NCBI GenBank assembly: GCA_964598505.1
Contig: CAZRCF010000001.1
Location: 150,543 to 214,542 of the forward strand
Reading direction: 5' to 3'
DNA: 64,000 nucleotides
Source: an uncultured Lentimicrobiaceae bacterium
Lineage (GTDB): Bacteria; Bacteroidota; Bacteroidia; Bacteroidales; WCHB1-69
A model generated the notes under the pieces. It saw only the letters and a program-made list of their open reading frames with translations, was not told the origin of the DNA and did no database searches. Shown piece by piece: positions 9,470 through 57,876 of this stretch (position 1 is its first letter; each line of letters begins with the position of its first letter). A program made the position numbers and the translations under genes.

Positions 9470-9509
9470 TCCAATCAATCTCCTTATTTTTATTAATATA
9501 TTCTTTAAT

Positions 9510-22690: not shown

Positions 22691-22766
22691 TGGAGCTGAT
22701 GGAGGGAGTCGAACCCCCGACAGGTTGATTACAAATCAACTACTCTTCCAACTGAGTTACATCAGC
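22691..22766 (-). tRNA. tRNA-Thr (anticodon UGU), encoded CCA
   Basis: Hand-folded 76-nt cloverleaf. Acceptor GCTGATG/CATCAGC, D arm ACTC-AGTTGGAA-GAGT, anticodon arm GTTGA-TTTGTAA-TCAAC, T arm GGGGG-TTCGACT-CCCTC. Confidence 0.88.
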
Positions 22767-28196: not shown

Positions 28197-29504
28197 TTAT
28201 TTTGTTGCTGCATAAATTGCCGTTAATGCATCATACTTAATTGTATATGGACATTTATTTGCAGACGTTACAGATGTCCACATTGATTTTGCATATTTCG
28301 GATGCATTTTTGTTTTAGCTTCTTCTTGAGCTTCTTTTGTGAATAAGGCCACTACAGCCATTGCGTCACCATCGAAGTCACCACCAACCCTATCAAGATC
28401 TAGTGGATTTAATGACATTGTAATACCTTCTCTTTTAACTCTTACGTTGGCTGCTAGCCATGAGTCTCTATTTTCGACGGGATCGCGTTTGTATATAATA
28501 ACTTTATCTTTAACAATATCTTCGGCTACATGCACAAAATAATCAACCATGTCTTCTGGAATGATTTCAGGTTTGTCTATTGCCGCAGCAAAAAGTTTCT
28601 TTAAATCAATAACATCAATATCAACATCTGATTTTAATAAATATTGAATTGACTTTAACATATTTCTGTCTCTTTTTAAAATATGATTTATTGCGAATGG
28701 TTCAAATAGTTTTAATACAACTGCCCAATGTAATCCAACTGTGCCCAAGGGCAACGTGTTATCCGTTGTAATAATTAATCTTCCAGAGTAGTCAACTACT
28801 TTTCTCATTAACCCACCACGAATCAAACCAGATTTACCTTTAAGACGATTCTTAATCCAATTATTAATTTCTAAAACAGTTTTCTGAATTTGTTCTATAA
28901 TTGGTCTTTTAATTTCATCAGGAAGAGTTTTAAAATCTGATCCAAGTGTATTTGTATGTCTAATTAAATTTGTATATAATTCGGACAGATCTGAAAAATT
29001 AACAAGTGTTTTATTCGTAGTTTTTGAGATAGATAGATCTCTGATTCCTGCCGGTAAAATCAAATATTTATCAATAAATATTTTATCTTTATTGTTTTTT
29101 ATAAAAGCAACATTTTTTGGTCTATTCTTTTTGAAATTATCAAGATCTATTTTCTTAAATATCGATATAAAATAATCTGTTCCTGAAGAACCTTTTTCTG
29201 AATCTTCAATAAGTACACCTTCTTTATTTACAATGTATTGCGCTTTTGATGTTATAAGTTTAGATATTGAAGGATCTAATCCAGTTATAAGTGAATATGC
29301 TTCAGGATGTATAATTGGAACTTTGAGATTTACATATGCAAATCTTTTCCTACGTTCATTTGATCCAAATTTGCCAAAAATTTCCTCTGAGAATAACCCA
29401 TTTGGATCAGTCTTCTCAAGTTTTTCATATAGCCGAATTGTTGATACCGGCTTGAGCTTATTGTCCTCTATATATTTATCAATATTAAGCAATTCAAGTT
29501 TCAT
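28197..29504 (-). CDS. multisubunit RNA polymerase beta-prime homolog, N-terminal catalytic module
   Basis: LKGKSGLIRGGLMRKVVDYSGRLII ([23 protein letters not shown]) and the catalytic GGDFDGDAMAV (NADFDGDQMAV). Confidence 0.85.
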   Translation of the reverse strand: MKLELLNIDKYIEDNKLKPVSTIRLYEKLEKTDPNGLFSEEIFGKFGSNERRKRFAYVNLKVPIIHPEAYSLITGLDPSISKLITSKAQYIVNKEGVLIEDSEKGSSGTDYFISIFKKIDLDNFKKNRPKNVAFIKNNKDKIFIDKYLILPAGIRDLSISKTTNKTLVNFSDLSELYTNLIRHTNTLGSDFKTLPDEIKRPIIEQIQKTVLEINNWIKNRLKGKSGLIRGGLMRKVVDYSGRLIITTDNTLPLGTVGLHWAVVLKLFEPFAINHILKRDRNMLKSIQYLLKSDVDIDVIDLKKLFAAAIDKPEIIPEDMVDYFVHVAEDIVKDKVIIYKRDPVENRDSWLAANVRVKREGITMSLNPLDLDRVGGDFDGDAMAVVALFTKEAQEEAKTKMHPKYAKSMWTSVTSANKCPYTIKYDALTAIYAATK

Positions 29505-30579: not shown

Positions 30580-31458
30580 TTATATAATTGGAATAGAAAC
30601 ACATTTTGATTTTCTTACATCAACATACTCGTCTCTATGCTTGAAGTTATTAAATACCCAAACATGTGCTCGAGGACTAAATACATATCCTTTTCTCATA
30701 CAATAATCAATTGTATCATAACTAGATTTTCTAAAGTCTTCTAGAAATTTCATTTCAGTCTTATATTCCAAATAATCTGGAGTTAAAGGCATTATACAAA
30801 TATTACAAACATAAGGAATGTCTGTAATAAATTTATTAATTAATTCTTCTTCAGCTTTAGAATATACAAATTTCCAAGTAATTGTAGTTGGTGTTTCTTC
30901 TAATATTTTCCGATACGATTCTCTATAATTCTCATCAAATAATGAAATTATATCATCAACTGTTTTAATCTTATCAGACCTATAATAACTAGGATCTAGC
31001 TTAGGGGATATATTAATTTGTATAGTTTTATCCCAATGATAGAAAAGCATTTTGTCAGTATTGCTGTTTAACAATACTCCATTTGTTTCAATTTCAATTT
31101 TAGTAATATTCTTTAAATTGGTGTTTTTGTTATATATTAAACTTCCAATAAATTCTTTATTCATTAGAGGTTCACCACCAGTTAGAAGAATGGTGTTGAT
31201 TTGAAATTTATTCAAGAATTGTTCATTCAGATAATTTATAAAATCATCTATGCTTGTTTCATCAACAGTGAACGGCAAGATCTTATTTCTAGAACTAAAT
31301 TTCTTAACATCTTTAATCTTTAAATTATTTGACCATGAGGTATCACACCATTCACAATCTAAATTACAATTGCCCATTCTAATGAGTAATACTGGTGTTC
31401 CCACGCTAGGACCTTCACCTTGTACCGTAGGAATTAACTGACTAATAATTGTTTTCAT
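30580..31458 (-). CDS. queE: 7-carboxy-7-deazaguanine synthase QueE (radical SAM)
   Basis: TVQGEGPSVGTPVLLIRMGNCNLDCEWCDT matches the QueE N-terminal signature with the CxxxCxxC-type cluster. GGAGG SD upstream. Confidence 0.85.
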   Translation of the reverse strand: MKTIISQLIPTVQGEGPSVGTPVLLIRMGNCNLDCEWCDTSWSNNLKIKDVKKFSSRNKILPFTVDETSIDDFINYLNEQFLNKFQINTILLTGGEPLMNKEFIGSLIYNKNTNLKNITKIEIETNGVLLNSNTDKMLFYHWDKTIQINISPKLDPSYYRSDKIKTVDDIISLFDENYRESYRKILEETPTTITWKFVYSKAEEELINKFITDIPYVCNICIMPLTPDYLEYKTEMKFLEDFRKSSYDTIDYCMRKGYVFSPRAHVWVFNNFKHRDEYVDVRKSKCVSIPII

Positions 31459-32974: not shown

Positions 32975-34525
32975 TTAATTTTGTCGAATTTCTGCAAAAC
33001 TTTTTGCTTTTTCCCAATTATTTTTATTTGTTGTTGAATCGCTAATTGGTTTGGTTTTAAGTCTCTTGCCGATACAAATGTCACATTTACCACATTCTTT
33101 AGTTCTTGTATAGTCGTTAAAATAATCAAGAATTTGTAGCATGCGGCAAGATCTAGTATTACTAACAAATTCGGACATATCAGTAAGAACATCAAATTTA
33201 GCTCTTCTCTTTTCTTCTAGAGTATTAAAATTAAAATATTCATCAAGAGATCTATTATGATCTATTTTATATTTACCTCTTCCAATGGTTTCGATAAAAC
33301 CATTTTCTCTTAATTTGGAAACACATCCACTGGTGTAACAACCTTTCATAAAAGAACTGCATTGTTCTTCCATTTCTTTTTGAGTCATTAATAGCATAGC
33401 ATTATCATCTACATTATCACAACACCATTGCCAAAAAGATCTAATATCTTCATTAGGTGGATATGACATTTCAATAAAGAATTTTTGTAATCCAATGTCT
33501 CTAAAGACATCAAAATATACAATACATTCTGCGCCTTTTCCATCTCTTGAAGCCCGTCCAATTTCCTGATAATAGTTTTCTACACTAGCTGGCATACCAG
33601 CATGAATCACGAAGCGAACGTCTGATTTATCTATTCCCATACCAAATGCAACTGTTGCAACTACAATTCCACCATTTTTAAACCAATTGGTTTGAGTTGA
33701 TTCTCTAGTTTTATCATCTAATCCAGCATGATATAATACAGCTGGAATATTTTCATTTATTAATTTTTCATTTATTTCATCTGCTAATTTTCTAGTAGGT
33801 GCATAAATGATTCCAGTTTTTATTCCAGAGTGAATGTAACCAGATGTTTTCTTTACAATGTGATCAATTTTCGAGGAAGCATTGCAGGTTTTGACTGAAA
33901 GTTCCAGATCTGGCCGGTAAAATCCTTGAATAAATTTCTTAGCTTTTAAAATATTTAATTGTTTACATATGTCTTTTTGAACTCTAGCAGTTGCAGTTGC
34001 TGTTAAAGCTATTACTTGTCTAGGTTCTAAAAATTCAATAGTATCTTTGAGTAATCTATAACTTGGTCTAAAATCGTGACCCCAACTGGAAATACAATGA
34101 GCTTCGTCTACTGCAAATAATTCAATTTTATTTGTCATTTTTAAGGCTTGAGTAAATCTTTGATCACTAAATCTTTCAGGAGCTATATAAAGAAGTTTTA
34201 CTTCTTGTCTTACTAATTTCTGGTGAATTATTTTCTTTTCAAATTCTAGTAGACTTGAATTATAAAATTCAGCAGTAATTCCTTTTGATTTTAAATAATC
34301 AACTTGATCTTTCATTAAACTTATTAGCGGCGAAATCACTATTGATAATCCATCCATGAGTAAAGAAGGAATCTGATATAATAAACTCTTTCCTGCTCCT
34401 GTTGGAAATACTGCTAATACTCCTTTATTTTCAATATCAAATATTGAATCAATAACTTCTGCTTGTGCATCTCTAAATGATTCAAATCCAAATACTTCTT
34501 TTAGAACTGTTTCTTTATCTAACAT
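32975..34525 (-). CDS. recQ: RecQ-family ATP-dependent DNA helicase
   Basis: FGFESFRDAQ, PTGAGKS, DEAHCISSWGHDFRPSY, and a RecQ zinc-binding Cys cluster CRM..L.....CGKCDIC. Confidence 0.9.
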   Translation of the reverse strand: MLDKETVLKEVFGFESFRDAQAEVIDSIFDIENKGVLAVFPTGAGKSLLYQIPSLLMDGLSIVISPLISLMKDQVDYLKSKGITAEFYNSSLLEFEKKIIHQKLVRQEVKLLYIAPERFSDQRFTQALKMTNKIELFAVDEAHCISSWGHDFRPSYRLLKDTIEFLEPRQVIALTATATARVQKDICKQLNILKAKKFIQGFYRPDLELSVKTCNASSKIDHIVKKTSGYIHSGIKTGIIYAPTRKLADEINEKLINENIPAVLYHAGLDDKTRESTQTNWFKNGGIVVATVAFGMGIDKSDVRFVIHAGMPASVENYYQEIGRASRDGKGAECIVYFDVFRDIGLQKFFIEMSYPPNEDIRSFWQWCCDNVDDNAMLLMTQKEMEEQCSSFMKGCYTSGCVSKLRENGFIETIGRGKYKIDHNRSLDEYFNFNTLEEKRRAKFDVLTDMSEFVSNTRSCRMLQILDYFNDYTRTKECGKCDICIGKRLKTKPISDSTTNKNNWEKAKSFAEIRQN

Positions 34526-35318: not shown

Positions 35319-36629
35319 CTATTCATTAAGATCGAATGGAAAACCAATCCGTTCAATGAATTTCTCCATTAGTTTTTCAAATTTATCACTATTATAATTC
35401 ATGTAAGCTTCGTGAAAAACGAAACAGTATTGAAAATTTATTAAATTCTTTTTTGTTCTATTGCCGAATATTAAAGGATATTTATATTCTAATTCTCTTA
35501 ATATCGGCGAGATCTTATTCTTGAATGTATTAAAGTTACTTGTTTCAAGAAACAAATTAACTATATTATTCTTATCAATTTCTTCATCAATAATTTTATC
35601 AATTGTTGTTTGGGCAATAACATTTAATAAACTTGCCATGCGAGTTTCTTCTACGTTTTTACCGTCTCGAACACATTGTAAATCTCTACAAACTGTTTCT
35701 AAGACTTCTTTATTATCAATTACTAAATGCATCTTGTCCATAAGATCGTGTGCATATCCACAGGTGTAAGTTCCATTGGGTTCTGGAATAAACATAATCT
35801 GTTCTTTGAGCTTATACAAACCACTTAATGAATAATTTACAGTATCATATGTAACCTGAACTTTGCATTTTCTATCTTTCAAATAATGTTGATTAAATAG
35901 TTTATGTAAGAAACTCATAATCATTCTATCATGTAAATGATATACTCCTAAAATATGAATAATACTTGTGTAATCAAGATTCTTATCATTGATTAATTTT
36001 AAGATCTTATATGTTATTCCTATAAAGGGACTGAATTTGATTCCAGTTATTCCTCTTAAAGAAACTAATCCTCCGACGGCAAAATTCTTCAAATTATTAT
36101 TATCGGCAAAATTCTCTTGATATACTTGTTTCCAAATATTATATTGCTTCAACAATTTAAACTGCCAAACAAAAGTATATTTATCATATAATTTTGGATT
36201 CTTTTCTAGAATTTTTACTGCTGTCGAAATAGATCTAGAATTAGCTTCTAGAATTGTTTTTATATTATTATTTTCTGGATATTTTAAAAAGATCGGAATA
36301 TCTAATGAAAATATATAATCGCAATTATCTGGTGCGTCTCTTTCCAGAAACATGTTGTAACATTCCGTAAATTTTCCAACATCTCTTGGGGAAACATCGC
36401 CTGCTATGATACTATATCCACCGGAGTCGACGAAGAATTTTCTACCATTATCCAGCACTTGCCGGTATTGTTTAATTTCTTCCGTAACACGATGAAGAGT
36501 ATCAAATCCGAAATTCCCCTGCCTCATTCCCTTAATTAAACTGAATAAGTAATTATTAACGTATTTATCAATTAATTTGAGTTGGTTCGATTCTATCACG
36601 TCGCCAGTCGTGTGTACGTATTGAAACAT
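35319..36629 (-). CDS. dpdA: DpdA-like tRNA-guanine-transglycosylase-superfamily protein (candidate 7-deazaguanine DNA transglycosylase)
   Basis: FFVDSGGYSI resembles the TGT/DpdA DSGGF(Q/S) substrate-pocket motif. About 430 aa in size. Co-occurs with folE2, queC, queD and queE. Confidence 0.6.
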   Translation of the reverse strand: MFQYVHTTGDVIESNQLKLIDKYVNNYLFSLIKGMRQGNFGFDTLHRVTEEIKQYRQVLDNGRKFFVDSGGYSIIAGDVSPRDVGKFTECYNMFLERDAPDNCDYIFSLDIPIFLKYPENNNIKTILEANSRSISTAVKILEKNPKLYDKYTFVWQFKLLKQYNIWKQVYQENFADNNNLKNFAVGGLVSLRGITGIKFSPFIGITYKILKLINDKNLDYTSIIHILGVYHLHDRMIMSFLHKLFNQHYLKDRKCKVQVTYDTVNYSLSGLYKLKEQIMFIPEPNGTYTCGYAHDLMDKMHLVIDNKEVLETVCRDLQCVRDGKNVEETRMASLLNVIAQTTIDKIIDEEIDKNNIVNLFLETSNFNTFKNKISPILRELEYKYPLIFGNRTKKNLINFQYCFVFHEAYMNYNSDKFEKLMEKFIERIGFPFDLNE

Positions 36630-37263: not shown

Positions 37264-37674
37264 TTAATATAGGATTTCTACTAAATTAGCTAAATCAATA
37301 TCTAATTTTTCTTCTGTTCCATCGTGTATTTGAATGTGCATTTTAGTTTCACAATGATTTGATTTATACATTTTTTCGGCGCGAGCTGCAACGTCTCGGT
37401 ATCCAGGTTTAGATCCAGCATATTGTTTTGCTCTAATTCTTGCTGCGTATATTAATGCACAATCAGGCTTACCTGTATCTGGGTTTACTACTGGGAATTT
37501 TAATTGGTCAGGAAGTAAGAAAGCGTGTTTGCCATATTTCTCAAGCATTAGTTGTCGATTTTTTCTACTTGATAATTTAGCTTTTGTAGAATTTGGAATA
37601 AGTTTTTTAATAGCTTCTGTTAATACATCATCCGTAGTTTCGTCTGTATAGAATTGTTGTTCATTAATTAACAT
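37264..37674 (-). CDS. hypothetical protein (136 aa)
   Basis: Start moved to the second ATG (MLINEQ) because GGAGG lies 8 nt upstream of it. Confidence 0.55.
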   Translation of the reverse strand: MLINEQQFYTDETTDDVLTEAIKKLIPNSTKAKLSSRKNRQLMLEKYGKHAFLLPDQLKFPVVNPDTGKPDCALIYAARIRAKQYAGSKPGYRDVAARAEKMYKSNHCETKMHIQIHDGTEEKLDIDLANLVEILY

Positions 37675-37697
37675 TTTAAGAACCTCCATAAAAATAT

Positions 37698-37747: not shown

Positions 37748-38467
37748 TTAAAATGGTACATCGTCGCTAAAGTTATTGAATGCATTTGAGAAATTTCCAG
37801 CAACACCTGCTGCTCCAGGATTTGGAGCATTACCACCAAATGGAGTAGGATTAACTCCTGAAGACGGAACTGGATCTGCAAATCCTGTTGGATTTGGGTT
37901 TTCATAAACTCCAGTTTGAGCTCCAGCTGGACCTCTTAAAATTTCAAGTTTATCACAATGTTCTGACATTGCTTGTAATTTATCAGCTATTGCTAATGCT
38001 CTATATGGAGTCATAGAATATCCTAATGCTTGATTACTTCCTACTTTGAAGAAGAATGTAACTTGAGGAGCATTATTCTGTTTTTGATTCTGTGTTTTCT
38101 GAATCATTAAAGATTTGCCTGTTCCACCTTGTGCTCCTCCACCATATGCGGATTTACCAGAATCAACATAAATTGAATGAGGACCAAGTTGAGCTTCTTG
38201 TCCACGTGCAAATGCTCTTAATGCATGAGCAAGTTCATCAATTTGATAACTATCAACTTTCATTGTAACTCTATTATTGAAATCAAATGTTCTCCCACCT
38301 TGTTGACTCTGAACTCCTGGAGCTAGTGTAATAAAGAAGAAGAATTGTTTTTTGTAACTTTGTTCCGATTCCTGCTTCACAATCGAAAATTGAAGAAGAT
38401 GATTTGCTGGAAACGAAGTTGAAAATATGTTTTCTAATTTTGATTGTCCTTGTGGTGCATTTGCCAT
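37748..38467 (-). CDS. candidate non-canonical ssDNA-binding protein with SSB-type acidic C-terminal tip
   Basis: Structured N-domain, then a G/P/N/Q-rich disordered tail ending FSDDVPF (compare bacterial SSB DDDIPF). GGAGG SD upstream. Confidence 0.45.
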   Translation of the reverse strand: MANAPQGQSKLENIFSTSFPANHLLQFSIVKQESEQSYKKQFFFFITLAPGVQSQQGGRTFDFNNRVTMKVDSYQIDELAHALRAFARGQEAQLGPHSIYVDSGKSAYGGGAQGGTGKSLMIQKTQNQKQNNAPQVTFFFKVGSNQALGYSMTPYRALAIADKLQAMSEHCDKLEILRGPAGAQTGVYENPNPTGFADPVPSSGVNPTPFGGNAPNPGAAGVAGNFSNAFNNFSDDVPF

Positions 38468-38656: not shown

Positions 38657-39376
38657 TTATGACACCTCAATTAAAAGATCTGGTGGAATCGTATCAAGAA
38701 CAGCTTGCGCATTATCTATAAGTGTCTGCCCTTCTGTTTGCAACTTATCGTAATTCAAATTTAAAGCTCCAAATGGAGTTGCTAAGTTTTCAAATTTTGA
38801 TCGCATTGCCGCTATCCAAAGTTTTGTATGACCAAGACACATAGGTTTAAAAGCTCTATGATATAAATCTGGTCTAATAGTATCTAATGTGATATGTGGA
38901 CGATTATATATAACAACACATGAATAAATCTCTTTATCAAATATCATTATATTTGGTGGTACAAATTCCCAGGTTTGTCTAGTTTGCATAGATCTAACTG
39001 CGTCAATATATGCGTTTGAAATTACAAGATCCATAGCGGCTTGAGCATTAATAATAGCTCCACCATACATATCCACAACTGAAACTTCCTTAGTTGGCAT
39101 AGCTTCAAGAATATCCACAATATACGTTCCTTCTGGAACTGGTATTGTATACATAAATCTTGGAGAACCTGATGCACCATTTATTTGATTTGCACCAGTA
39201 ATAAAAGCATAATCTTTAGCTGGGGCATATTGTGAAAATGCTGAAAGAGTATGTTCTCTCAAATTTAATATAAGTTCGTCATCTGGTATTTCTAATAAAT
39301 TTATTGGAACTCCAAGATTAATTTTAATATAGCTTAAAATATTATTCCAATGTTGTGCTGGTTGAGTATCTGTCAT
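38657..39376 (-). CDS. hypothetical protein (239 aa)
   Basis: Start moved to MTDTQPAQ (AAGGAG upstream) so the CDS does not read through the palindromic hairpin. Confidence 0.6.
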   Translation of the reverse strand: MTDTQPAQHWNNILSYIKINLGVPINLLEIPDDELILNLREHTLSAFSQYAPAKDYAFITGANQINGASGSPRFMYTIPVPEGTYIVDILEAMPTKEVSVVDMYGGAIINAQAAMDLVISNAYIDAVRSMQTRQTWEFVPPNIMIFDKEIYSCVVIYNRPHITLDTIRPDLYHRAFKPMCLGHTKLWIAAMRSKFENLATPFGALNLNYDKLQTEGQTLIDNAQAVLDTIPPDLLIEVS

Positions 39377-39391
39377 AATTAACTCCTTGAC

Positions 39392-39425
39392 TATCGGCAA
39401 GATCTTTAACTAGATCTTGCCGATA
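39392..39425 (-). terminator. terminator; 28-bp CGGCAAGATCT palindromic element, inverted copy
   Basis: CGGCAAGATCTTTAACTAGATCTTGCCG is the exact reverse complement of the cores at 45338 and 53651. Confidence 0.7.
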
Positions 39426-39832: not shown

Positions 39833-40044
39833 TTTACCTCCATATTGATTTTATTACATGTTACTGTAGTTATTGATATTATATTTCCATATGAGTTATT
39901 ACTTTTAATTGCAGCATAACATATTCCATATCTGTCTTTGAAATAACTAAGATCATTTGAAAGAGTTTCTACTTTTTCTGGTTTGTCAGTAACTGTGCAT
40001 CCTAATATGATAAATAATATAAATATAAATATTATTTTCTTCAT
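39829..40044 (-). CDS. small lipoprotein (71 aa)
   Basis: Signal peptide with lipobox: MKKIIFIFILFIILGC. Confidence 0.6.
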   Translation of the reverse strand: MKKIIFIFILFIILGCTVTDKPEKVETLSNDLSYFKDRYGICYAAIKSNNSYGNIISITTVTCNKINMEVK

Positions 40045-41078
40045 TTTACCTCCATGTTGGTTTCTTGTTTTATAAATACTTGTTTTGGTATTCGTTTAAG
40101 TTGTTCTTCAAATGATATTAATTTATAGTTCTTATTAATCATTTCAAAATTATCTTTAATAATATCTGGCATCGTATTAAGTTTCCATTTAAGTTCTTCT
40201 GCCGATATAGGAATTGAATGATTTATAATTAAATCAATTGCTTTTGTTGGACCAATTCCTCTTATTCCAGGAACACCATCTGCTTTATCTCCACCGATTG
40301 CCAAAATCATAGGGATATATTCCGCAGTTAATATTCCTCTTTTAAATTTCTTATTAATGTAACTTATTGCATTTTCATTATCATAAGCATCAAACTGAAT
40401 TACATATCCTCCCTTATTTCTATTTGGGTTTTGAATAAAAGAGGTTACACATTGTATTGTATTTGTAAATTTACAACATTGTAATAAGTCTTTATCAACG
40501 GACAAGATTACATTTAACACATCAGATTGATCTGAATCGAATAAACCATTTACAATACAATAGTGAGGAATTAAATCAGCTTCATACTCTTTAAGATAAT
40601 AAACTTTTGAAATATCTTTTTTAGTAAACATTTGTTCAATTTTTTGATAGTAATATTTTTTTATTTCTCGGAATAATTGAACTTGTTCATCATTATCAAT
40701 TATTAAATTTAAAGTTGATCTTCCAGATTTATATGAACTATCAATTATTTTTTGTTGAGCACAATATCCATCATCATATGAAATTACAAAAAATGGATCA
40801 TATGCCTTAAATTGGGTATATAATCCATTTAGAAATTCTCTTAGTTCTTGCACTAAAATATCGCTGACTTTTCCTTCAGTAGCGTATCTTCCAAGTTCGA
40901 CTAAAATGACATCCTTATTATAGAAGCCTTTTGCGATCGATTGAAGATCGATAAAAAAGTTAATTCGTTTCTTACTTAATTTTTGAAGAATCTCTACAAT
41001 TAGAGAATATTTAATCTGATATTTTATATAGTATTTAATAGCTTTTCCACTCCTTTCAAAAAATAAAAATAGAAACAT
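40041..41078 (-). CDS. flap endonuclease / 5'-3' exonuclease (T4 RNase H-like, PIN + H3TH)
   Basis: INFFIDLQSIA (T4 RNase H ICLIDFSQIA), YEADLIPHY, GGDKADGVPGIRGIGPTKA (H3TH). The start is uncertain: the ATG lies only 23 nt from the promoter core, and an AAGGAG lies further inside. Confidence 0.75.
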   Translation of the reverse strand: MFLFLFFERSGKAIKYYIKYQIKYSLIVEILQKLSKKRINFFIDLQSIAKGFYNKDVILVELGRYATEGKVSDILVQELREFLNGLYTQFKAYDPFFVISYDDGYCAQQKIIDSSYKSGRSTLNLIIDNDEQVQLFREIKKYYYQKIEQMFTKKDISKVYYLKEYEADLIPHYCIVNGLFDSDQSDVLNVILSVDKDLLQCCKFTNTIQCVTSFIQNPNRNKGGYVIQFDAYDNENAISYINKKFKRGILTAEYIPMILAIGGDKADGVPGIRGIGPTKAIDLIINHSIPISAEELKWKLNTMPDIIKDNFEMINKNYKLISFEEQLKRIPKQVFIKQETNMEVK

Positions 41079-43291: not shown

Positions 43292-43858
43292 TTATTTCCT
43301 CCATGCCGTAAAGGTAGTTCTTGAATCATCTTGAAAAGTTAATGTTACGTTTTCAAGACGATTCATAAACTTTTCCATTGTAATTCTATCTGTTTTATCT
43401 GCATGCCATTCTATTGCCCATTTTCGAATTTTTAGTAATTCGTCGTCTGATAATTCAGGTAAGAAATCTTTTTCAGTTCCTTCACAATCTATTTTTAGGA
43501 AATCTATCTTTTCTAAATTATTAAGAATGCTTTTAAAACTAATAAAATCAACTTCCTCTGGAACTCCTCTTGTTAAATAAATTCCACTACTAGGTGTATC
43601 GTTTATGTCAAAATATATATTTCCTTTTCCATTATTTAAACAAACTGCAGCTTTTGTTAATTCTACTTCTTTAATTAATTTGCATATTTTGAATAATTTA
43701 TTGCATGGTTCAAACGCTATAATTCTTCCTGCTTTTTTAGATTTAGCATAATATATAAACTCTCCAACATGTGCACCAATGTCAACTACTATATCTCCTT
43801 CTTCAACATCACAATTTGGGGTTATATACGTATTAATATCTGTTACTGGATTAATCAT
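43292..43858 (-). CDS. FkbM-family SAM-dependent methyltransferase
   Basis: VVDIGAHVGEFIYYA ... IIAFEPC matches the FkbM (TIGR01444) N-terminal signature. ATGA overlap with the upstream gene. Confidence 0.7.
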   Translation of the reverse strand: MINPVTDINTYITPNCDVEEGDIVVDIGAHVGEFIYYAKSKKAGRIIAFEPCNKLFKICKLIKEVELTKAAVCLNNGKGNIYFDINDTPSSGIYLTRGVPEEVDFISFKSILNNLEKIDFLKIDCEGTEKDFLPELSDDELLKIRKWAIEWHADKTDRITMEKFMNRLENVTLTFQDDSRTTFTAWRK

Positions 43859-45300
43859 ATTCGACTCATTTCTGGTGTGCGAGCAAAACACATCTTACAT
43901 ATATTTGGAAAATCGTGATTAAGAAGTTGTTTTCTCCACAAATTCCACCTACTTAAAAATTTATCATATCCATCACGAATATCACCAATGTACATTTCAG
44001 ATTGCCAATCTCCACAACATACATGTCCTTTACCACAATAATCTACAATCAATTCCCAATTAGGTCTACCACATCTTTCGATATTATTACCTTCTATCTG
44101 TTGTATTCTTCCGTCCAGAGCACCTTGTTGAAACCTTATATTTTTACAAGTGTCTGAAAGAATATTGAGTGCAGTAGTATTTGTTTCTGGATAAATTGTA
44201 ACCATAACATCTGTAAATCTTTTTATAAGAAATTTGTCTTCGATTGATAAATTTATTCCGTTTGTCCACAGTGAGTATTTTGCTTCTGGAACAGCCTCTA
44301 TTATCTCAATTAGTTTATCTTTTGACAATAGGGGTTCATTATAATAATGAACATTAACAAGACCATCAAATCCTCGATTTATACAATGGTGAAGAAATCC
44401 GATAATATCTTTTGTTTCAAGTGGATTTCCTATTAGTTTTCGAGTGTTTCTTGGACATTCTTTATGTAAATTAGTAAGTTGACATTCATCGTTTATCTCA
44501 AATGCAAGATGTTTAAGAAAGTGAAGATCAATATGTGTATCCAGAATTGGTAATACCATATCGTTTTTGTGGGAATTACATGCAAGTACAATATCATTTT
44601 TTGTTACTGTGAAATGTTGATATCCATATCCTTTTTCCTTATTTTCTTTACTAAATCGTTTCTTGCGAAGAAGTCTTCTTGAAATTGCTAATGATGGATC
44701 TGCCATTTGCCAATGAACACCACTATATCTTTCTGCACAAAGATTGAACTCCTTTTCTAATTCGTGATTTCCAGGTTTAAATTGAATACCTATTCCTGGT
44801 CTAATAACAATAGGTTTTACATAATATATATTTGCAGCAGTATGTTCTGACTGCCAAGTTGATAGTCGATCGGGATCGCCATGTAATCTTTGTGGAACAG
44901 GTAAATCATTATAATCAAGATCTTTGTCGTCTTTATGCCGATATACTTGATATAACCATGCTAATATTATATCTCCTTCTTGGCGTTTTAAGAACTCTTT
45001 AGAATTTTCCCATGAAGCTGGAAATATAAATTCGTCCGGGTCAACAACATAGACCCAATCACATTTTATTAAGTTAAGTTGTTCATTTATTATTCGTACT
45101 TTTTGTGAATCATCAAGTCCTTCTTCTATATGACATGGAATTATTTTAATATTATTATATGATAAAAGAATACTCTCTGTTTTATCATCTGTATCAGTTT
45201 CTAGAAGGACCCTAATTTCGTCAACATCTTTATAATGATTACAAAAAAAATGAGCCATTTGCTCTTCATTATACATCATCGTAATGATTCCAATTCGCAT
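43855..45300 (-). CDS. two-domain protein: GT2-like glycosyltransferase N-domain + Cys-rich radical-SAM/SPASM-like C-domain
   Basis: N-terminus MRIGIITMMYNEE... is GT-A-like. C-terminus has VHYYNEPLL, WTNG, CGRPNWELIVDYCGKGHVCCGDW...IGDI...CKMCF (SPASM/twitch-like). No canonical CxxxCxxC motif was seen. Confidence 0.4.
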   Translation of the reverse strand: MRIGIITMMYNEEQMAHFFCNHYKDVDEIRVLLETDTDDKTESILLSYNNIKIIPCHIEEGLDDSQKVRIINEQLNLIKCDWVYVVDPDEFIFPASWENSKEFLKRQEGDIILAWLYQVYRHKDDKDLDYNDLPVPQRLHGDPDRLSTWQSEHTAANIYYVKPIVIRPGIGIQFKPGNHELEKEFNLCAERYSGVHWQMADPSLAISRRLLRKKRFSKENKEKGYGYQHFTVTKNDIVLACNSHKNDMVLPILDTHIDLHFLKHLAFEINDECQLTNLHKECPRNTRKLIGNPLETKDIIGFLHHCINRGFDGLVNVHYYNEPLLSKDKLIEIIEAVPEAKYSLWTNGINLSIEDKFLIKRFTDVMVTIYPETNTTALNILSDTCKNIRFQQGALDGRIQQIEGNNIERCGRPNWELIVDYCGKGHVCCGDWQSEMYIGDIRDGYDKFLSRWNLWRKQLLNHDFPNICKMCFARTPEMSRI

Positions 45301-45549: not shown

Positions 45550-45842
45550 TTTATATTCTCCAATTCTTGTGAGATAACTTTTAATAAGCTTTTAATAATA
45601 TGTGGATGATTCTTTATTTTAAATTCTAAAGTAGCATCTCGAATAACTGAATTTTCCTTACCGATATCTACATTTAATACAATTTGGTTATCTATATATT
45701 TTTCTGGATTCTCTCCAATTTTAATTAATTTTAAATTATATCCAGCTTTATGTAAACAATTTACAACATCATTACTTACTTTTCCTGGCTGGTTTAAATC
45801 AACATCTATTATATTTTTAAATAGAGTTTCATCAAGATTCAT
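45546..45842 (-). CDS. hypothetical protein (98 aa)
   Basis: ORF track; overlaps the end of ligA by 4 nt. Confidence 0.5.
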   Translation of the reverse strand: MNLDETLFKNIIDVDLNQPGKVSNDVVNCLHKAGYNLKLIKIGENPEKYIDNQIVLNVDIGKENSVIRDATLEFKIKNHPHIIKSLLKVISQELENIK

Positions 45843-47740
45843 TTTTTATTTTCCTTTATCAAAGATATTAATTCTGTTTCCGTTATAACTTTAACACCTC
45901 TTTCAACTGCTTTTTTGAATTTACTTGAATCACTCGGAGTATTACAAATTAAATAATCACATGATGATATACTTGAATTTGTCCCTCCAAACTTTTCAAT
46001 TATTTGTTCATAAGCTTTTCTTGGCTTACTTAAACTTCCAGTTATACAAAAGCTTTTGCCGGTTAAAGGACCTTTTACAGATACAAAATTTATACCAGTA
46101 TCCATTAATTTCTTTAATAATTCTTTATTCTCTTTTAATCCTTTAATAACTGAAGTTACTTTTATTTCTCCAAGTCCTTTGACTTGAATTAATTTAGTAA
46201 TCATAGTTTTTAACAAATCTTGGTTATCAAGAGCATTAATAATGTCTTGCGGTGAAAAGTTTTCCAAAATTAATTTAGATGTTGTATTTCCTAAATTATC
46301 AATTCCAAAAGCGGCAAGAATCTTTTCAGGTCTTGCTTTTTTAGTTTGTTCAATTCGATTTAAAAAATCATCAGTTGATGTTTCTGCCCAACCATCTAAT
46401 TTTAAAATATCTTCTCTCTTTAAATTATAAATATCAATAACGGTTTTACAACCTAAACTTGTAATCATCTTCTCACTAAAGTTTTCAAGTCCAAGCTTCT
46501 CAAAGAAATATGCTATTCCTTTTTGAGTTTGTGCAGGACAATTTTGGTTAGTGCAATATAAATGTGTTTTGGTATCATCGGTTTCTAACGGATGATGTTT
46601 ACAAGTTGGACACGCTATTAATCCACCAACATTTTCAGATGCTTTAATTACATTTTCAATATATGGAATAACATCTCCAGATCGAACAATCTTAATGATT
46701 GCTCCTGGTCCGATGTTATTATCATAAATGAATTTTGCATGAAATCCTGTTGCTCTCTTAATTGTTACTCCACCCAAGTTAACTGGTTTAATTTTCACCA
46801 CTGGAATAATTTTTCCAGTTCGAGAAGTATTCCATTCAACTTCTTCAACTTTCGCTTCTATTGCCATTTTATTAAACTTAAATGCTATTTTCTTTTCGGG
46901 AAGTTTAATATTTTCAACTGCTGAACTATTAACTGTTACAACAATCCCATCTTTATCATATTGAGTTGTTTGTTCAAATAATTTTTTAGCAACTTCAATC
47001 ACTATTGTTTTAGTATCTGCGTGAGCAAAATTAACTACTGAATTGTTTAAAATTCCAAATGTTTCTTGCATATACTTCATGCGTCCAAGTTCATTAGTTT
47101 CAAGATCAGTTGGTATAAATTGATTTGGAACATATGTATGAAATATAACATAAAGATGTTGTAATTTACTATGATCATCTCTATTAATTATTCCCGCTGC
47201 AGCATTACGTTTAGTCTTATATGGAGTTCCATCATCTCTCTTAATCGATTCTGGTTCACAATTTAAGAGAATTTCACCTTTAAAATATTGTTTACCAAGT
47301 GGTTGAGACCGAATACAACTATGAGTAGGAGTAAATTTAAGAGCCTTAGCTGTAATATTTTCACCCACATAATGATCACCTCTTAACCAAGCTCCTGTTA
47401 AAGTACCATCCGTGTATTCACATTCAATTGCAACTCCATCAAGTTTATGAGATAGAACAAATCCACTTCCATTGTCATTTTTATCTAACCAAGCTTGAAT
47501 ATCATCTTCAAATTTATTCGTTAAGCTACCTAAAATAAATGGTAATGTTTCTTTATTCTTTTTAGGTTTATTTCCTATCTTTAATAAGAATTTACTATTT
47601 GGTCTTAATTGTTGTAAAATTCTTTTATAATGATCATATTCATTATCTGGAATTTTTATTTCTCCAATTTCATAAGCTTCTAAACAAGATTCTAATTCTT
47701 GTTCAAGTCTGTCTAAGTCTTCAGTTGTATACTCTTCCAT
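45839..47740 (-). CDS. ligA: NAD-dependent DNA ligase LigA
   Basis: Adenylation motif KLDGVA, Zn finger CPTC...C.NQNCPAQ, HhH region, C-terminal BRCT-like GKSFCITGSL. Confidence 0.9.
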   Translation of the reverse strand: MEEYTTEDLDRLEQELESCLEAYEIGEIKIPDNEYDHYKRILQQLRPNSKFLLKIGNKPKKNKETLPFILGSLTNKFEDDIQAWLDKNDNGSGFVLSHKLDGVAIECEYTDGTLTGAWLRGDHYVGENITAKALKFTPTHSCIRSQPLGKQYFKGEILLNCEPESIKRDDGTPYKTKRNAAAGIINRDDHSKLQHLYVIFHTYVPNQFIPTDLETNELGRMKYMQETFGILNNSVVNFAHADTKTIVIEVAKKLFEQTTQYDKDGIVVTVNSSAVENIKLPEKKIAFKFNKMAIEAKVEEVEWNTSRTGKIIPVVKIKPVNLGGVTIKRATGFHAKFIYDNNIGPGAIIKIVRSGDVIPYIENVIKASENVGGLIACPTCKHHPLETDDTKTHLYCTNQNCPAQTQKGIAYFFEKLGLENFSEKMITSLGCKTVIDIYNLKREDILKLDGWAETSTDDFLNRIEQTKKARPEKILAAFGIDNLGNTTSKLILENFSPQDIINALDNQDLLKTMITKLIQVKGLGEIKVTSVIKGLKENKELLKKLMDTGINFVSVKGPLTGKSFCITGSLSKPRKAYEQIIEKFGGTNSSISSCDYLICNTPSDSSKFKKAVERGVKVITETELISLIKENKK

Positions 47741-47753: not shown

Positions 47754-48662
47754 TTATTTAAATTCTAATATAAGATCTAAATAATCTTCTCTCCAGTATG
47801 GGTATATTTCTCCATTTAATGCTCTCAAAAGATTTTCTGCCGATAAACATTTTACTAATTCATTTTCACCATTTACATGCAAGTGAACATTTTGAGGATA
47901 TAGGTACGACATTCCTCCGAAATCATTAATATTACCATTTGGTTTTGGAAGATAAAATCTATCTAAAGATGGTTTATCTGTAATAATAATTCCTTTAACG
48001 TCTAGAGCTGCAGCGATATGCATTGGTCCAGAATCTATTCCTATAAAATATTCAAATGTTGCAAATCTTTTTATCATTTCTTCAGTAGGTAAACTAAAGT
48101 ACTCCACATTCTTTAAGTGTGGAGTACTTTGTTTAGCAAACGTTTCAACAAAATGAAATTTATTATTGTTATTATCTACAAATTTTTGAATAAGAGGAGT
48201 TATGATATCTGTTAGATAATGAAATGAATGCCCTTCTATATTAATAAGAATTGTATTCGGAATTTTATTACATCTGAAATTAATATATGGTTTTGGTTTA
48301 ATATCTATTTCAAAATCCATTGCTCTGCTTTGAACTTGTAACCAATGGCCATTTCCAGCATCTATATCATACAATTGACATATTGCATTATATTTTGATA
48401 GATCTAATTCATCTTCCGAAATATAATAATCATTAAAAACCATTAAAGGTTCAAAAAATGTGCTTTGACTAAATATATGAACTTCCCGATTTGCTTTAAA
48501 AGCTTTTTTTGGTATGATTGATAAAAAAGCTGTATCTCCGAAATTCCAAGAAGTATTAGTCCAATTCATAGCATAATCAATAAATTTTATTTTTCGATCT
48601 GTTGGAAATTGTTTATTAACTTTCTTGATCATTGAAAGAATATCATCTTTTGTATATATCAT
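47754..48662 (-). CDS. glycosyltransferase family 9 (heptosyltransferase-like)
   Basis: IGIDSGPMHIAAALDVKGIII matches the GT9 D(S/T)GxxHLAAA motif. Confidence 0.65.
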   Translation of the reverse strand: MIYTKDDILSMIKKVNKQFPTDRKIKFIDYAMNWTNTSWNFGDTAFLSIIPKKAFKANREVHIFSQSTFFEPLMVFNDYYISEDELDLSKYNAICQLYDIDAGNGHWLQVQSRAMDFEIDIKPKPYINFRCNKIPNTILINIEGHSFHYLTDIITPLIQKFVDNNNNKFHFVETFAKQSTPHLKNVEYFSLPTEEMIKRFATFEYFIGIDSGPMHIAAALDVKGIIITDKPSLDRFYLPKPNGNINDFGGMSYLYPQNVHLHVNGENELVKCLSAENLLRALNGEIYPYWREDYLDLILEFK

Positions 48663-50256: not shown

Positions 50257-50664
50257 TTAGCTTTCTGTTGTTTCTGTTACTGGTTGTTCTGTTGCTGGTT
50301 GAGGATCATTAGATGTAAGTGGTGTTCTATTTACTTTATCTAACATTCTAAGATCATATGCTATAATTTCGTATGCTTTACGTTTTGTCCCAGGATTTGC
50401 TGTATCTTCATATTCCCGAGATTGAATCTTTCCTTCCACATATACATGTGAACCTTTTTTAAGATAATTACTAGCAATTTCAGCAAGACGCCTCCAGAAA
50501 ACTACTCTGTGCCATTCTGTGCGTTTTTGTTCATTACCTTTCTGATCTTTCCAAGTTTCAGATGTTGCAATACTAAGATTACAAACAGATGTACCATCTA
50601 CAGTGTGTCTGAGTTCTGGATCTTGTCCAAGCCAACCGATTAGAATAACTTTATTAATACTCAT
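50257..50664 (-). CDS. ssb: single-stranded DNA-binding protein (OB-fold SSB), lacks acidic C-terminal tip
   Basis: MSINKVILIGWLGQDPELRHT..G..V....IA....W.D..G....RTEWHRVV.W..LAE canonical SSB signature. Ends ..TETTES. Confidence 0.88.
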   Translation of the reverse strand: MSINKVILIGWLGQDPELRHTVDGTSVCNLSIATSETWKDQKGNEQKRTEWHRVVFWRRLAEIASNYLKKGSHVYVEGKIQSREYEDTANPGTKRKAYEIIAYDLRMLDKVNRTPLTSNDPQPATEQPVTETTES

Positions 50665-50699: not shown

Positions 50700-52658
50700 T
50701 TAAGATTTCAAAAATTGAAGACTCACATCCACCACCTGTTTGGTTCGACTTTTAATCGGTCGATTTTCTGGAAGATCATATTTACCATCCACTACAAGTT
50801 GTCTAACTAAATCTTTCTTTCCAGCTGTCCAATCACTTTTTACAGATAAAATTTCTTTGACTGCTAGATCACACCCGTGTGCTAACATACTTTCTAACTC
50901 CATTTGACCAACTCTACTTCCACCACCTCTTGCTCTACCTTTGGTTGGTTGTTTAGTTATACTTTTGACACTACCAAAATCTCGAGCATTTATAATTTTA
51001 GAAACTAATTTTGATAATTTCTGAATATAAATCGGGGCACATAGGATATTTTTTAAATAAACATCTTCATCTGGAAATTGTGTTTCTAATTTTAATTTTT
51101 GTTTGATAAATTTAATCGTTTCTTTTTTAATTAAAACTGTCTCTTTATAATTGATTGTATTTTTTACTAATGTTTTTATGTCAACTTCTGCAAAAGAAGG
51201 AGATTCCACAAATAAATTTGATTGATTGATATTTTCAACAAATTGATTTCTAAATTCATCATTATCTAAATTATCAATAATTTCATTTTTGACTCTTAAA
51301 TAATATTTATCATCAATATGTTTTAAAACAGATTCGTTTAACCAAGTTATTATTTCTTTTGAATTTTCGGGATTTGTTCTAATATGTTCGTCACAATACA
51401 TAACTGATTTTCCAACTAATGCTTCCAATAGTTGCCCAAGATTCTGCCGACTAAATACACTAAAAGGATTATAAATTAAATCAATTTGTTTATTTGAAGT
51501 TGTTGCAATTGGTCGCAATTCATCTGGAAGAATCAAACTGACTATTCCTTTTGCAGCATATCTGTTTGCAATTTTGTCACCGATTACTGTTGGACAATCT
51601 TTTGATATTTCTAATTCAATAAGGTAACATAAATTATTAAGTCCTATTTCTCCTCTTGATCCTTTTGTTTTTTCAATATACATATAATATTTTTGAAGAA
51701 TATATCCAACATATTGTGAATTAAAACATTTTAGAAGATCACTTCTTGTTTGTACAACAAAAGTTCCATATTTTAAATATAATTGATCCATCATATTTTC
51801 TAATTTTTGATCGATCATTACTTGTGTTCCTAGTTTTTTGAATTTATGAATTTTGATACCTGAAATAGTACCATTTTCAACTTTTGTTTTAATTTTATCA
51901 ATTGCAAATTTACCATCTCCACAGAATCCCATATTCAATAAATCTGATAATGACATATTCTTCAATGACATTTGAACTTTATTTTTTAGATCTGAATAAT
52001 TTGCTGTCGAACTATCTCTTGGAGCAATCAAACAACATACTATATCATCCTTAATTTTTTGTCCAATTGCAGGAAAATATACATATGAATCTTGATAATC
52101 TTTATAAAATTCTTGCATTAATGTATATTCATATATCGGAATATACACTTTATCAACTTGTGAATATCTAGCTTTGTCCGCTAAACTTTCAGAAATCGTA
52201 ATAGCGTCCTCGTGATTGTATCCGAAAAATGGCATGTATGCTGTAAAAACATTATATCCATAGCTCGGAACATGACCTATGAAACAATCATAATTTGCTA
52301 AAATATCCCCTCTTTTAAATTTAGATTTATTTGGAATCACATATCTCAGTTTTGTTCCAAAAGAACCTGTTGTCTTTTTTATCGGCGGAAGACTTATATC
52401 GACAACTTTATTAAGATTTGAATATTGAACAATTAATAAATCTTGATTTTTATATAATACCTCTCCATCATCCTTAGCTAATACCACTCCCATCTTAGAG
52501 GAATTTGTTACAGTATAATAATCAGATCCAATAACATATGGAATTTCAGTATTCAAGCTTGTTAATGCTTGTTGAATTTGTTTCGCACTCATCGAAGCTC
52601 TTGTACTGTCAGTTGAGCTAAGAAATGGAATAGTATTTAAATTTACACTTACAATCAT
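50700..52658 (-). CDS. multisubunit RNA polymerase beta homolog, C-terminal module (split gene)
   Basis: Begins IVSVNLNTIPFLSSTDSTRASMSAKQIQQA ([30 protein letters not shown]). Also NRYAAKGIVS and GGGSRVGQMELESMLAHGC. Confidence 0.85.
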   Translation of the reverse strand: MIVSVNLNTIPFLSSTDSTRASMSAKQIQQALTSLNTEIPYVIGSDYYTVTNSSKMGVVLAKDDGEVLYKNQDLLIVQYSNLNKVVDISLPPIKKTTGSFGTKLRYVIPNKSKFKRGDILANYDCFIGHVPSYGYNVFTAYMPFFGYNHEDAITISESLADKARYSQVDKVYIPIYEYTLMQEFYKDYQDSYVYFPAIGQKIKDDIVCCLIAPRDSSTANYSDLKNKVQMSLKNMSLSDLLNMGFCGDGKFAIDKIKTKVENGTISGIKIHKFKKLGTQVMIDQKLENMMDQLYLKYGTFVVQTRSDLLKCFNSQYVGYILQKYYMYIEKTKGSRGEIGLNNLCYLIELEISKDCPTVIGDKIANRYAAKGIVSLILPDELRPIATTSNKQIDLIYNPFSVFSRQNLGQLLEALVGKSVMYCDEHIRTNPENSKEIITWLNESVLKHIDDKYYLRVKNEIIDNLDNDEFRNQFVENINQSNLFVESPSFAEVDIKTLVKNTINYKETVLIKKETIKFIKQKLKLETQFPDEDVYLKNILCAPIYIQKLSKLVSKIINARDFGSVKSITKQPTKGRARGGGSRVGQMELESMLAHGCDLAVKEILSVKSDWTAGKKDLVRQLVVDGKYDLPENRPIKSRTKQVVDVSLQFLKS

Positions 52659-57087: not shown

Positions 57088-57876
57088 TTAATAATTTGTC
57101 ATTATTGCTACTGCATTGTGAGCGTGAATTGATTCATCGGATTCTACACTTACTTTAAATTTCTCAACATCTTCCATTTTATCTAATTTATCATATACGG
57201 CGCGAGCTATATCTTCGACAAACATTGGACTATTGTATGCTCTTTCTGTAACTACTTTTTCATCAATTCTCTTAAGTACTGAAAATATTTCACAAGATGA
57301 AGATGATTCTGCCGCTTCAATAAGGGATTCAATCCAAATAAATGAATTCTCTTTTCCTTGAACTACCATATCAATTAATACTTTCTGATTGTGTGCTCCA
57401 TATTCAGATATTTCTTTTGAGCAAGGACATAGAGATGTTGCTAATACTTTGACACCCAATCTAAATATGAAATTGTCTTTTGTTTTAATTCCAGTAAAAG
57501 AAATATGATATGGAAGTATACCAGGTTCCTGAGAAGCTGGAGCTAACTTCTGAACAAAATATGGAAACGAATAACTTATTTCACAAGTATCCGCTTCCGC
57601 TGAAATTCTTATATTTTCTGCAATTGAACTAATTAGTTTACCATTAAGTTGTTGTCCAACAAATTTCTGTAAACCAATTATTAATCTACTCATATTTGTT
57701 CCTTTAAGATTAGCAGCGAGATCTACATAACAATCAACTTTAGCAACTGAATGTTGTACTCCTCCGTTCTTCATTGAAACAAAAATAGGAAGTTCAACAG
57801 AATTGATACCAACTCTATTGATCCTAATTTCATGTACTGGTAATGTGTATTGCATATCCGGTAAGTTTTCTGACAT
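57088..57876 (-). CDS. folE2: GTP cyclohydrolase IB (FolE2 / GCYH-IB)
   Basis: N-terminal LPDMQ, RVGIN..ELPI, and SLCPCSKEIS..GAHNQ metal-site motif. AGGAGA SD upstream. Confidence 0.85.
   Translation of the reverse strand: MSENLPDMQYTLPVHEIRINRVGINSVELPIFVSMKNGGVQHSVAKVDCYVDLAANLKGTNMSRLIIGLQKFVGQQLNGKLISSIAENIRISAEADTCEISYSFPYFVQKLAPASQEPGILPYHISFTGIKTKDNFIFRLGVKVLATSLCPCSKEISEYGAHNQKVLIDMVVQGKENSFIWIESLIEAAESSSSCEIFSVLKRIDEKVVTERAYNSPMFVEDIARAVYDKLDKMEDVEKFKVSVESDESIHAHNAVAIMTNY

Follow-up and report, generated by a model that had tools for sequence, protein, structure and literature searches.

A 64,000-nucleotide stretch of an assembly filed as an uncultured Lentimicrobiaceae bacterium (contig CAZRCF010000001.1; this whole stretch is hereafter the window) contains, at 37748..38467 on the minus strand, a gene for a 239-amino-acid (aa) protein with a predicted Whirly fold, a disordered tail and a C-terminus of the type that ends bacterial single-stranded DNA-binding proteins (SSBs). 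We refer to it as the Whirly-tip protein, and we rate slightly better than even the prospect that it is a hub for binding single-stranded nucleic acids, built on the bacterial SSB plan with a Whirly/PUR core in place of the oligonucleotide-binding (OB) fold. Judging by its genes, the window belongs to an uncultured jumbo phage whose multisubunit RNA polymerases (RNAPs) are split, a hallmark of phiKZ/AR9-type phages. The closest characterised analogue of the protein is ChmC/Imp6, of which it is possibly a very remote homolog.

Fold, tail and tip of the Whirly-tip protein

The gene begins with ATG, its stop codon lies at 37748-37750 and the product ends in ...GVAGNFSNAFNNFSDDVPF, its C-terminal residues being ...NFSNAFNNFSDDVPF. 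The open reading frame (ORF) list and the translation place the gene on the minus strand, because the plus-strand frame of the same interval is riddled with stops; a plus-strand reading was rejected for this reason. Four parts follow one another, all encoded on the minus strand: (i) a Whirly/PUR-like core (aa 8-178; 37934..38446) that is predicted to consist of two beta-sheet-plus-helix halves and is basic (isoelectric point, pI, 9.35; residues 1-178 have the same pI and a charge of +4.8); (ii) a linker (aa 179-220, GPAGAQTGVYENPNPTGFADPVPSSGVNPTPFGGNAPNPGAA; 37808..37933) of low predicted order that varies among homologs, is rich in G, P, N and A and lacks K and R; (iii) a second conserved tail motif (aa 221-233, GVAGNFSNAFNNF; 37769..37807), possibly a short amphipathic helix; and (iv) the SSB-type acidic tip (aa 234-239, SDDVPF-COOH; 37751..37768). 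Over the whole tail (aa 179-239) the composition is 16% G, 16% P, 15% N, 13% A and 10% F, with no K or R and a net charge of -4.2. From the amino-acid composition of the window, a C-terminal [DE][DE]xPF is expected in about 3e-5 of proteins, and the Whirly-tip protein is the only one among the 77 window ORFs of at least 100 aa that ends in PF.

The original prediction had described a DDVPF tip on a 239-aa, non-OB-looking protein encoded at 37748..38467. Its coordinates are right, the tip is present and the modelled fold is Whirly/PUR; it overlooked the minus strand, the jumbo-phage context and the parallel with ChmC. It had also called the tail rich in G, P, N and Q, which is correct for the first three residues and hardly so for Q, the fourth abundant residue being A.

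A model of the protein was built with AlphaFold2 from a 38-sequence alignment, and secondary structure was assigned with DSSP. The core is predicted confidently (predicted local distance difference test, pLDDT, mostly >85 over aa 10-178) and has two halves, each a beta-sheet with a helix: strands 11-20, 23-32, 42-53, (59-61) and 67-71 with helix 73-87 in the first, and strands 98-101, 118-127, 133-142 and 148-152 with helix 154-177 in the second. This is the tandem beta-beta-beta-beta-alpha repeat that marks the Whirly/PUR (PC4-like) structural class. The tail is disordered from residue 183 (pLDDT <50 over aa 183-224), and low-confidence helices are placed at 221-229 and 231-234. When the model is compared with the PDB using Foldseek, the top nine matches are solely plant Whirly and Pur-alpha structures (probability 1.00), among them WHY1 (4koo), PBF-2/p24 (1l3a), WHY2 (4kop), StWhy2 (3r9z) and Drosophila Pur-alpha (3k44); matches below these nine have probabilities of at most 0.2 and are noise. 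The structure prediction called for by the original prediction is therefore Whirly/PUR and non-OB.

A Pfam scan gives no match of the protein to PF00436, the OB-fold SSB family, nor to PF08536 (Whirly) or PF04845 (PurA), and the KGKAAL motif of plant Whirlies is absent from its sequence. As modelled, the protein is therefore a member of the Whirly/PUR fold class that stands outside the plant Whirly and PurA sequence families. A PDB sequence search with two profiles found no solved relative. The model supports a core that is non-OB and yet has a classical fold for binding single-stranded nucleic acids. Basic residues K39, R59, K70, K105 and K118 are invariant in the close homologs, K70 and K118 are conserved at 90% or more across 135 diverse family members, and the conserved Lys and Arg residues of the core lie on or beside strands. 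We infer that the core probably oligomerizes and binds single-stranded DNA (ssDNA) and/or RNA.

The protein belongs to a family that is absent from current annotation: it has no match in Pfam or PHROG and none by tblastn in 50,697 phage records. Its 38 close homologs are metagenomic, and a deep profile search yields 220 clusters at 50% identity with E<=1e-3, 177 of them at E<=1e-10. A Pfam scan of 135 family members returned nothing meaningful (a single weak PurA match, E 0.008), and a word-indexed search with the 135-sequence alignment found no named relatives.

The very end of the tail is conserved. The PF ending is present in 36 of the 38 close homologs although their linkers differ in length and sequence; F239 is invariant, P238 is conserved at 90% or more, and the tip is retained in homologs down to 37% identity. 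A census of 172 family members with a complete core found a tail with P-[FWY] within the last three residues in 113; these tails average about 59 aa, are rich in N, P, Q, G and S and contain 4% K+R. Another 17 members have a terminal aromatic residue of a different type, 34 have other endings, and in about a dozen the tail is absent, or short and basic. Among the 91 members that end in PF, position -4 is D or E in 78% and position -5 in 62%, position -3 is V, I, T or A, and position -7 is F in 27%, a profile of the same pattern as FDDDIPF, the tip of the E. coli protein. A tail not conserved in homologs had been named beforehand as something that would tell against the original prediction; conservation was found both in the close homologs and in most of the 220-cluster family. 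That the tail is nothing more than a low-complexity region was rejected, because the last six residues are conserved position by position.

The second motif is also conserved. V222, F226 and F230 are kept at 90% or more in the close homologs, and a regular expression for the motif, which reads NFxxxFxxF in the window protein and F-[SG]-x-M-L in distant members, matches 78 of 171 family members, compared with 1 of 77 window ORFs. Many distant members without a PF tip (a subset of P0119-P0186) share a recurring end, ...[DQ]xF[SG]xML(x)2-5, that resembles the internal NFSNAFNNF of the window protein. Because these PF-less members keep an F-[SG]-x-M-L version, the tail seems to carry two separable short linear motifs that differ in phylogenetic spread.

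Three distant members (P0115, P0107 and P0118) match the profile over the whole core (E 1e-25 to 1e-29) and have no tail. Their genes lie directly upstream of a gene for a RecD2-type helicase of about 740 aa, abutting or overlapping it, and form with it a conserved two-gene unit or operon on conjugative or plasmid-like contigs (L014-L017) with F-type Tra genes (TrbC, TraF, TraL, TraE, TraK and TraW-like), ParA, Ros/MucR and toxin-antitoxin pairs. In a rough neighbour-joining tree the tail-less members form one compact cluster; a search of PLSDB gave no match for the plasmid-branch member. These relatives show the tail and tip to be an add-on typical of the phage branch. The position of a tail-less core beside RecD2 on conjugative elements points to ssDNA handling by the core, and the tail-less proteins may be ssDNA-binding partners of plasmid RecD2 helicases that have so far gone unrecognised.

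Proposed function and relation to ChmC/Imp6

We propose that the Whirly-tip protein works within the replication-transcription gene module of a jumbo phage with multisubunit RNAPs, as a functional counterpart of ChmC/Imp6. Its basic, two-lobed beta-sheet core would probably oligomerize as Whirly proteins and ChmC do and would bind ssDNA and/or RNA. The disordered Gly/Pro/Asn-rich linker of about 40 residues would bear two conserved peptides, NFxxxFxxF and the terminal DDVPF-COOH, which may tether partner proteins to the nucleic acid that the core coats, or keep the Whirly-tip protein within a condensate. These two peptides may also bind back onto the basic Whirly surfaces, giving a regulated self-association as proposed for ChmC condensates. 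Candidate partners of the tip are the phage-encoded RecQ, FEN, RNAP and a conserved 141-aa neighbour, or host SSB-interacting proteins.

ChmC of the nucleus-forming jumbo phages (Chimalliviridae; e.g. PhiPA3 gp61, phiKZ gp67 and Goslar gp176) is a Whirly-fold homotetramer (Enustun et al. NAR 2024, PMC11077065). It binds single-stranded RNA with a dissociation constant of 58 nM and ssDNA with one of 184 nM, is required for mRNA export and phage yield, and has a tail of 50-70 disordered residues, an N/G-rich part followed by an S/D/E-rich part, that is needed for RNA condensates (PMC11077065). The same protein is known as Imp6 and binds directly to Imp1/PicA, an import factor that is itself a phage protein. 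It acts in mRNA export and protein import of the phage nucleus, not as a decoy, and in phiKZ it is encoded beside the genes of the non-virion RNAP.

Fetched ChmC sequences end much as the Whirly-tip protein does. The phiKZ protein ends in ...SAFDEDMPSF, metagenomic ChmCs in ...GFDDDIPDF, ...FDEDIPNF and ...GDDDFPF, and those of cultured phages in ...GGGDFADDLPF (Erwinia RAY gp240), ...AFDTDIPF (SNUABM_54) and ...DDGSEDLPF (Burkholderia FLC9). ChmC itself is thus characterised by an SSB-type tip after a G/N-rich linker. The main texts of the ChmC paper (PMC11077065) and of two recent reviews do not use the word 'SSB', and we found no sign in them that the tip had been noted. The ortholog in Erwinia phage pEa_SNUABM_54 (QXO11112.1, L009:40-1452) is a 470-aa protein in which the Whirly core is duplicated in tandem and a long Q/G/N-rich tail leads to the end AFDTDIPF.

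The two proteins share an architecture: both have a Whirly-type core of about 180-200 aa, then a disordered G/N-rich tail of 50-70 aa with an acidic end and a terminal aromatic residue, and both total about 240-250 aa. The genes for both are found close to RNAP genes, in jumbo phages that encode multisubunit RNAPs, and several true ChmC tips are exactly of the SSB type (DDLPF, DTDIPF and EDLPF). Structural neighbours are shared as well. In a viral structure library the window model retrieves A0A5P8D5W3 and I1VXI4 at ranks 9 and 11 (5e-3 and 8e-3), which the ChmC model matches at 1e-15 and 1e-10, and A0A8S5UTR0 is matched by both models at about 1e-4; these alignments include the disordered tails. 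By contrast, the window tail is richer in Pro and Ala and has the additional NFxxxFxxF motif, its model has about four strands per repeat compared with three in ChmC, and the cores have no significant sequence similarity, the PHROG being different or absent.

Several observations weigh against the proposed hub and its link to ChmC: (i) the Foldseek scores of the top nine matches are modest (E 4e-4 to 4e-3, TM 0.47-0.60 normalised to the target); (ii) about a third of the family has endings other than P-[FWY]; (iii) hhalign of the window protein against ChmC is collinear but weak (E 4.6e-3, probability 7.5%), is still weak for the cores only (151 collinear columns, E 1.2e-3, probability 19%) and falls to E 0.027 and 1.8% with a more diverse ChmC profile (reversed control, E 0.33), while HMMER in both directions links the window family and ChmC by their tails only; (iv) no homologs of chimallin, PhuZ or Imp1 were detected in the 64-kb window of a genome that probably exceeds 200 kb; (v) should the phage form a nucleus, the SSB partners of the host may have no access to the site of action; and (vi) no test of the tip alone was found in the ChmC/Imp6 papers and reviews searched, the only truncation seen in them having removed the whole tail. 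Homology to ChmC was thus sought by single-sequence hhalign, profile-profile comparison, cores only, a broadened profile and HMMER, and the cores-only values are the best obtained; because the score worsens with more ChmC diversity, we do not claim homology of the cores. As regards chimallin, a 600-aa window ORF gave no PDB sequence match when examined as a candidate, and the search is uninformative given the 64 kb covered and the extreme divergence.

The most serious alternative takes the protein for a ChmC/Imp6 ortholog in the strict sense, very divergent and encoded by a nucleus-forming phage. It would then serve at the nuclear shell as an mRNA chaperone and import cofactor, and its acidic end would tune RNA binding and condensation solely as an 'electronegative cluster', without being an SSB-type docking peptide. 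The similar architecture, tail chemistry and tip, the shared structural neighbours, the genome with multisubunit RNAPs, the closeness of RNAP genes in relatives and the collinear hhalign over 151 columns all speak for this alternative, and autoregulation by an acidic C-terminal tail is known for RNA chaperones such as Hfq (PMC5606850). We nevertheless regard it as unlikely that the protein is such an ortholog. The profile-profile probability is low and drops with a better ChmC profile, phrog_3284 (the ChmC PHROG) has no match to the window protein, neither chimallin nor Imp1 was found in the window, and the halves of the model have about four strands, not three. Measured by RNAP beta, the cultured phages nearest to this one are of the AR9/PBS1 type, at 22-24% identity. 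The plasmid branch with RecD2 points to DNA over mRNA export, and the strict conservation of a terminal Pro-Phe exceeds what a charge cluster needs. Synteny with phiKZ was also rejected: the neighbours are in different PHROGs, and BLASTP of phiKZ gp54-gp82 against the window ORFs gives a single match, to one RNAP piece, with none for gp54. That the protein works like ChmC or SSB is better supported than its membership in ChmC.

Genomic setting and possible role of the tip

All genes of the window lie on one strand and its GC content is 29%. Pfam and PHROG scans identify at least five split RNAP beta/beta-prime genes (14920-19614, 20510-22288, 28197-29504, 50700-52658 and 62385-63383, all minus), a number that implies two RNAP sets, one virion and one non-virion. 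One of these genes encodes a beta-like protein of 1564 aa, which has a long extension at its N-terminus. By RNAP beta, the nearest cultured relatives are PBS1/AR9 and Staphylococcus or Listeria jumbo phages, at no more than 22-24% identity.

The Whirly-tip gene is located in a one-strand module with genes for a canonical SSB, an NAD-ligase (45839-47740), a FEN-type exonuclease (40041-41078) and RecQ (32975-34525), and the gene order of this module is kept in related contigs. More narrowly, it is the middle gene of a three-gene cassette that is kept in distant relatives: a phrog_18911-like gene, the Whirly-tip gene and a gene for a protein of 137-176 aa. In the window the upstream member (38657..39400, minus; 247 aa) matches phrog_18911, labelled 'virion structural protein' (E 2e-17). 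The PHROG scan, which covered the window and the distant locus L003, finds a phrog_18911 member directly upstream of the Whirly gene in L003 too; in L005 and L002 the same position is held by genes for 236-237 aa, similar by size, and that of L002 has a faint match to PF26809 (Phage_T4_gp13). Staphylococcus jumbo phages, which were examined as possible cultured carriers, have a phrog_18911 gene and no Whirly-tip gene nearby. The downstream member (37264..37689, minus; 141 aa) has no Pfam or PHROG match and is 37-67% identical to its counterparts in L003, L005 and L020, each of which is the next gene downstream of the Whirly gene there. In distant relatives, the gene after the cassette is an ortholog of the window RNAP beta-prime piece at 28197..29504 (minus; PF00623, E 2e-14; phrog_2986, E 1e-54), so that in L003 and L020 this piece comes two genes after the Whirly gene; in the window it lies about 8 kb downstream, and its identity to the L020 and L003 pieces is 42% and 32%, respectively. 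A conserved 436-aa ORF at 35319-36629 has no family match.

The canonical OB-fold SSB of the module (50257..50664, minus; 135 aa; PF00436, E 3e-36; phrog_44, E 8e-46) ends in ...PVTETTES without an acidic-aromatic tip, as the original prediction had stated, and its counterpart in the related contig L005 is likewise tipless (...KKDSTEET).

The SSB tip is a universal docking peptide of bacterial genome maintenance. One could imagine that the Whirly-tip protein hijacks the SSB interactome of the host or acts on it as a decoy, its tip binding ExoI, RecQ, PriA, chi, Ung and other SSB partners and either titrating them away from host SSB or recruiting them to phage nucleic acid. Its last seven residues, F-S-D-D-V-P-F, follow E. 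coli F-D-D-D-I-P-F with the Phe at -7 included, the OB-SSB of the phage has no tip of its own, and a tip-bearing SSB-like protein of another phage has been linked genetically to host ExoI. A well-folded, basic and conserved Whirly core speaks against a peptide decoy pure and simple, the RecQ, FEN and ligase encoded nearby by the phage are equally plausible targets, and the known direct partner of ChmC is the phage protein Imp1. On balance this reading is improbable. Its pure form has the least support, since conservation is as high in the folded basic core as in the tip. The original prediction, which had offered either a novel ssDNA-binding protein or a decoy or adaptor of this kind, is thus partly supported in its interpretation.

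A division of labour is a little less probable again. Here the Whirly-tip protein would co-coat ssDNA with the tipless OB-SSB, or bind it, and supply the tip in trans, the two together forming the replicative SSB. In both the window and L005, a Whirly gene whose product has a tip does share its module with a PF00436 SSB that lacks one, amid replication and repair genes, but this co-occurrence was seen in only two related genomes, and no SSB gene is found within 10 kb in L003. The reading that the ORF is spurious or structural and its low-complexity C-terminus a product of chance, to which the 'virion structural protein' label of the upstream PHROG and the commonness of low-complexity tails might lend some colour, is hardly credible and is effectively refuted by the conservation data: 220 homologous clusters, a confident fold, an invariant terminal Phe over variable linkers, conserved synteny and a chance expectation of about 3e-5.

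A hub of the SSB type with a Whirly/PUR core thus remains our preferred reading. Tentatively, and with less confidence than for the hub itself, we extend it to a whole family: Whirly proteins of jumbo phages with multisubunit RNAPs, with ChmC/Imp6 as the characterised edge, may carry a full SSB recruitment module and act as non-OB 'SSB' hubs that plug phage RNA or ssDNA into host or phage tip-reading enzymes (such as RecQ and Imp1) in replication compartments; the OB-SSB would have given up its tip, and the tail-less core would serve RecD2 on conjugative plasmids. Strict conservation of the tip on another nucleic-acid-binding fold, across hundreds of phage lineages, would mean that the design of core, floppy linker and tip was rebuilt or transplanted onto Whirly. 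Since the family has no Pfam or PHROG annotation, we predict that many jumbo-phage genomes carry a single-strand-binding hub that has gone unrecognised, and the RecD2-linked plasmid branch suggests a further unrecognised ssDNA-binding protein of conjugative elements. ChmC/Imp6 is an essential and mechanistically unclear factor of the phage nucleus, for which the tip offers a testable handle; Imp1/PicA, RNAP, helicases and host SSB partners are candidates for what ChmC docks to. Its tail has hitherto been treated as a bulk low-complexity region, and the last residues of the RAY, FLC9 and SNUABM_54 proteins are an exact SSB tip. That a terminal DDxPF acts as a docking peptide, including in these three ChmCs, is a testable hypothesis.

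Other features of the window concern DNA modification and translation. A near-complete preQ0 (7-deazaguanine) pathway comprises a FolE2-type GTP cyclohydrolase, QueD/PTPS, QueC and a radical-SAM QueE-like enzyme (57088-57876, 4354-5166, 7508-8221 and 30580-31458, all minus; FolE2, PF02649, E 2e-77; QueC, E 3e-55), which suggests that the phage DNA is deazaguanine-modified; no DpdA/TGT was identified in the window. The product of 4354-5166 (minus) joins, unusually, a repair glycosylase fold to an enzyme of deazaguanine synthesis: QueD (PTPS; aa 126-267) is preceded by an N-terminal pyrimidine-dimer DNA glycosylase (PF03013, aa 1-72, E 3e-14). Two glycosyltransferase-like genes (43855-45300 and 47754-48662, both minus), with GT2 and weak GT9 heptosyltransferase matches, lie within the replication module between ligase, SSB and FEN and are absent from that place in the relative L005. 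Two phage tRNAs are present, Ser(TGA) at 9510-9597 and Thr(TGT) at 22691-22766 (both minus), the former overlapping the 3' end of the ORF listed at 9053-9574.

Comparison with known systems

The E. coli SSB tail ends in ...DFDDDIPF. Bacterial SSBs (PF00436) and the Whirly-tip protein both have a basic core, predicted in the latter to bind nucleic acid as it does in SSB, a disordered G/P/N(Q)-rich linker of about 50-60 aa and a terminal [DE][DE]-hydrophobic-Pro-Phe-COOH with Phe at -7. The two differ in the core, which is Whirly/PUR in the window protein and an OB tetramer in SSB, and there is no sequence relationship between them.

With plant Whirlies (WHY1/WHY2, StWhy2 and PBF-2/p24) and Pur-alpha, the protein shares, as modelled, a two-fold beta-beta-beta-beta-alpha repeat and a single-strand-binding beta surface, at a sequence identity of 8-12% to the window core. 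The phage family differs from the plant proteins by the addition of an SSB-like tail; we know of no plant Whirly with such a tail. Whirly and Pur-alpha are grouped in the PC4-like fold class (review PMC7549692).

Bas52_0087, the SSB-like trigger of DRT10 from a BASEL phage, has a disordered C-terminal region that ends in FDDDIPF and is proposed, from a genetic link, to interface with host SSB partners such as ExoI (bioRxiv 10.64898/2026.04.29.721553). Like the Whirly-tip protein, it is a phage protein whose disordered C-terminal region ends in an SSB-type tip; it differs in having two OB folds in place of Whirly and in the type of phage that encodes it.

T7 gp2.5 is also a phage ssDNA-binding protein with an acidic C-terminal tail ending in Phe (...EEADEDGDF), although its fold is OB-like and it lacks both Pro-Phe and a long G/P/N linker. 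Its tail docks onto the polymerase and helicase of T7 itself and vies with ssDNA for the binding cleft. Docking of partners and/or binding back onto the core, with regulated self-association, applies to E. coli SSB as well as to T7 gp2.5. T7 gp2.5 is thus an example of how a tip can act on phage partners and in autoregulation.

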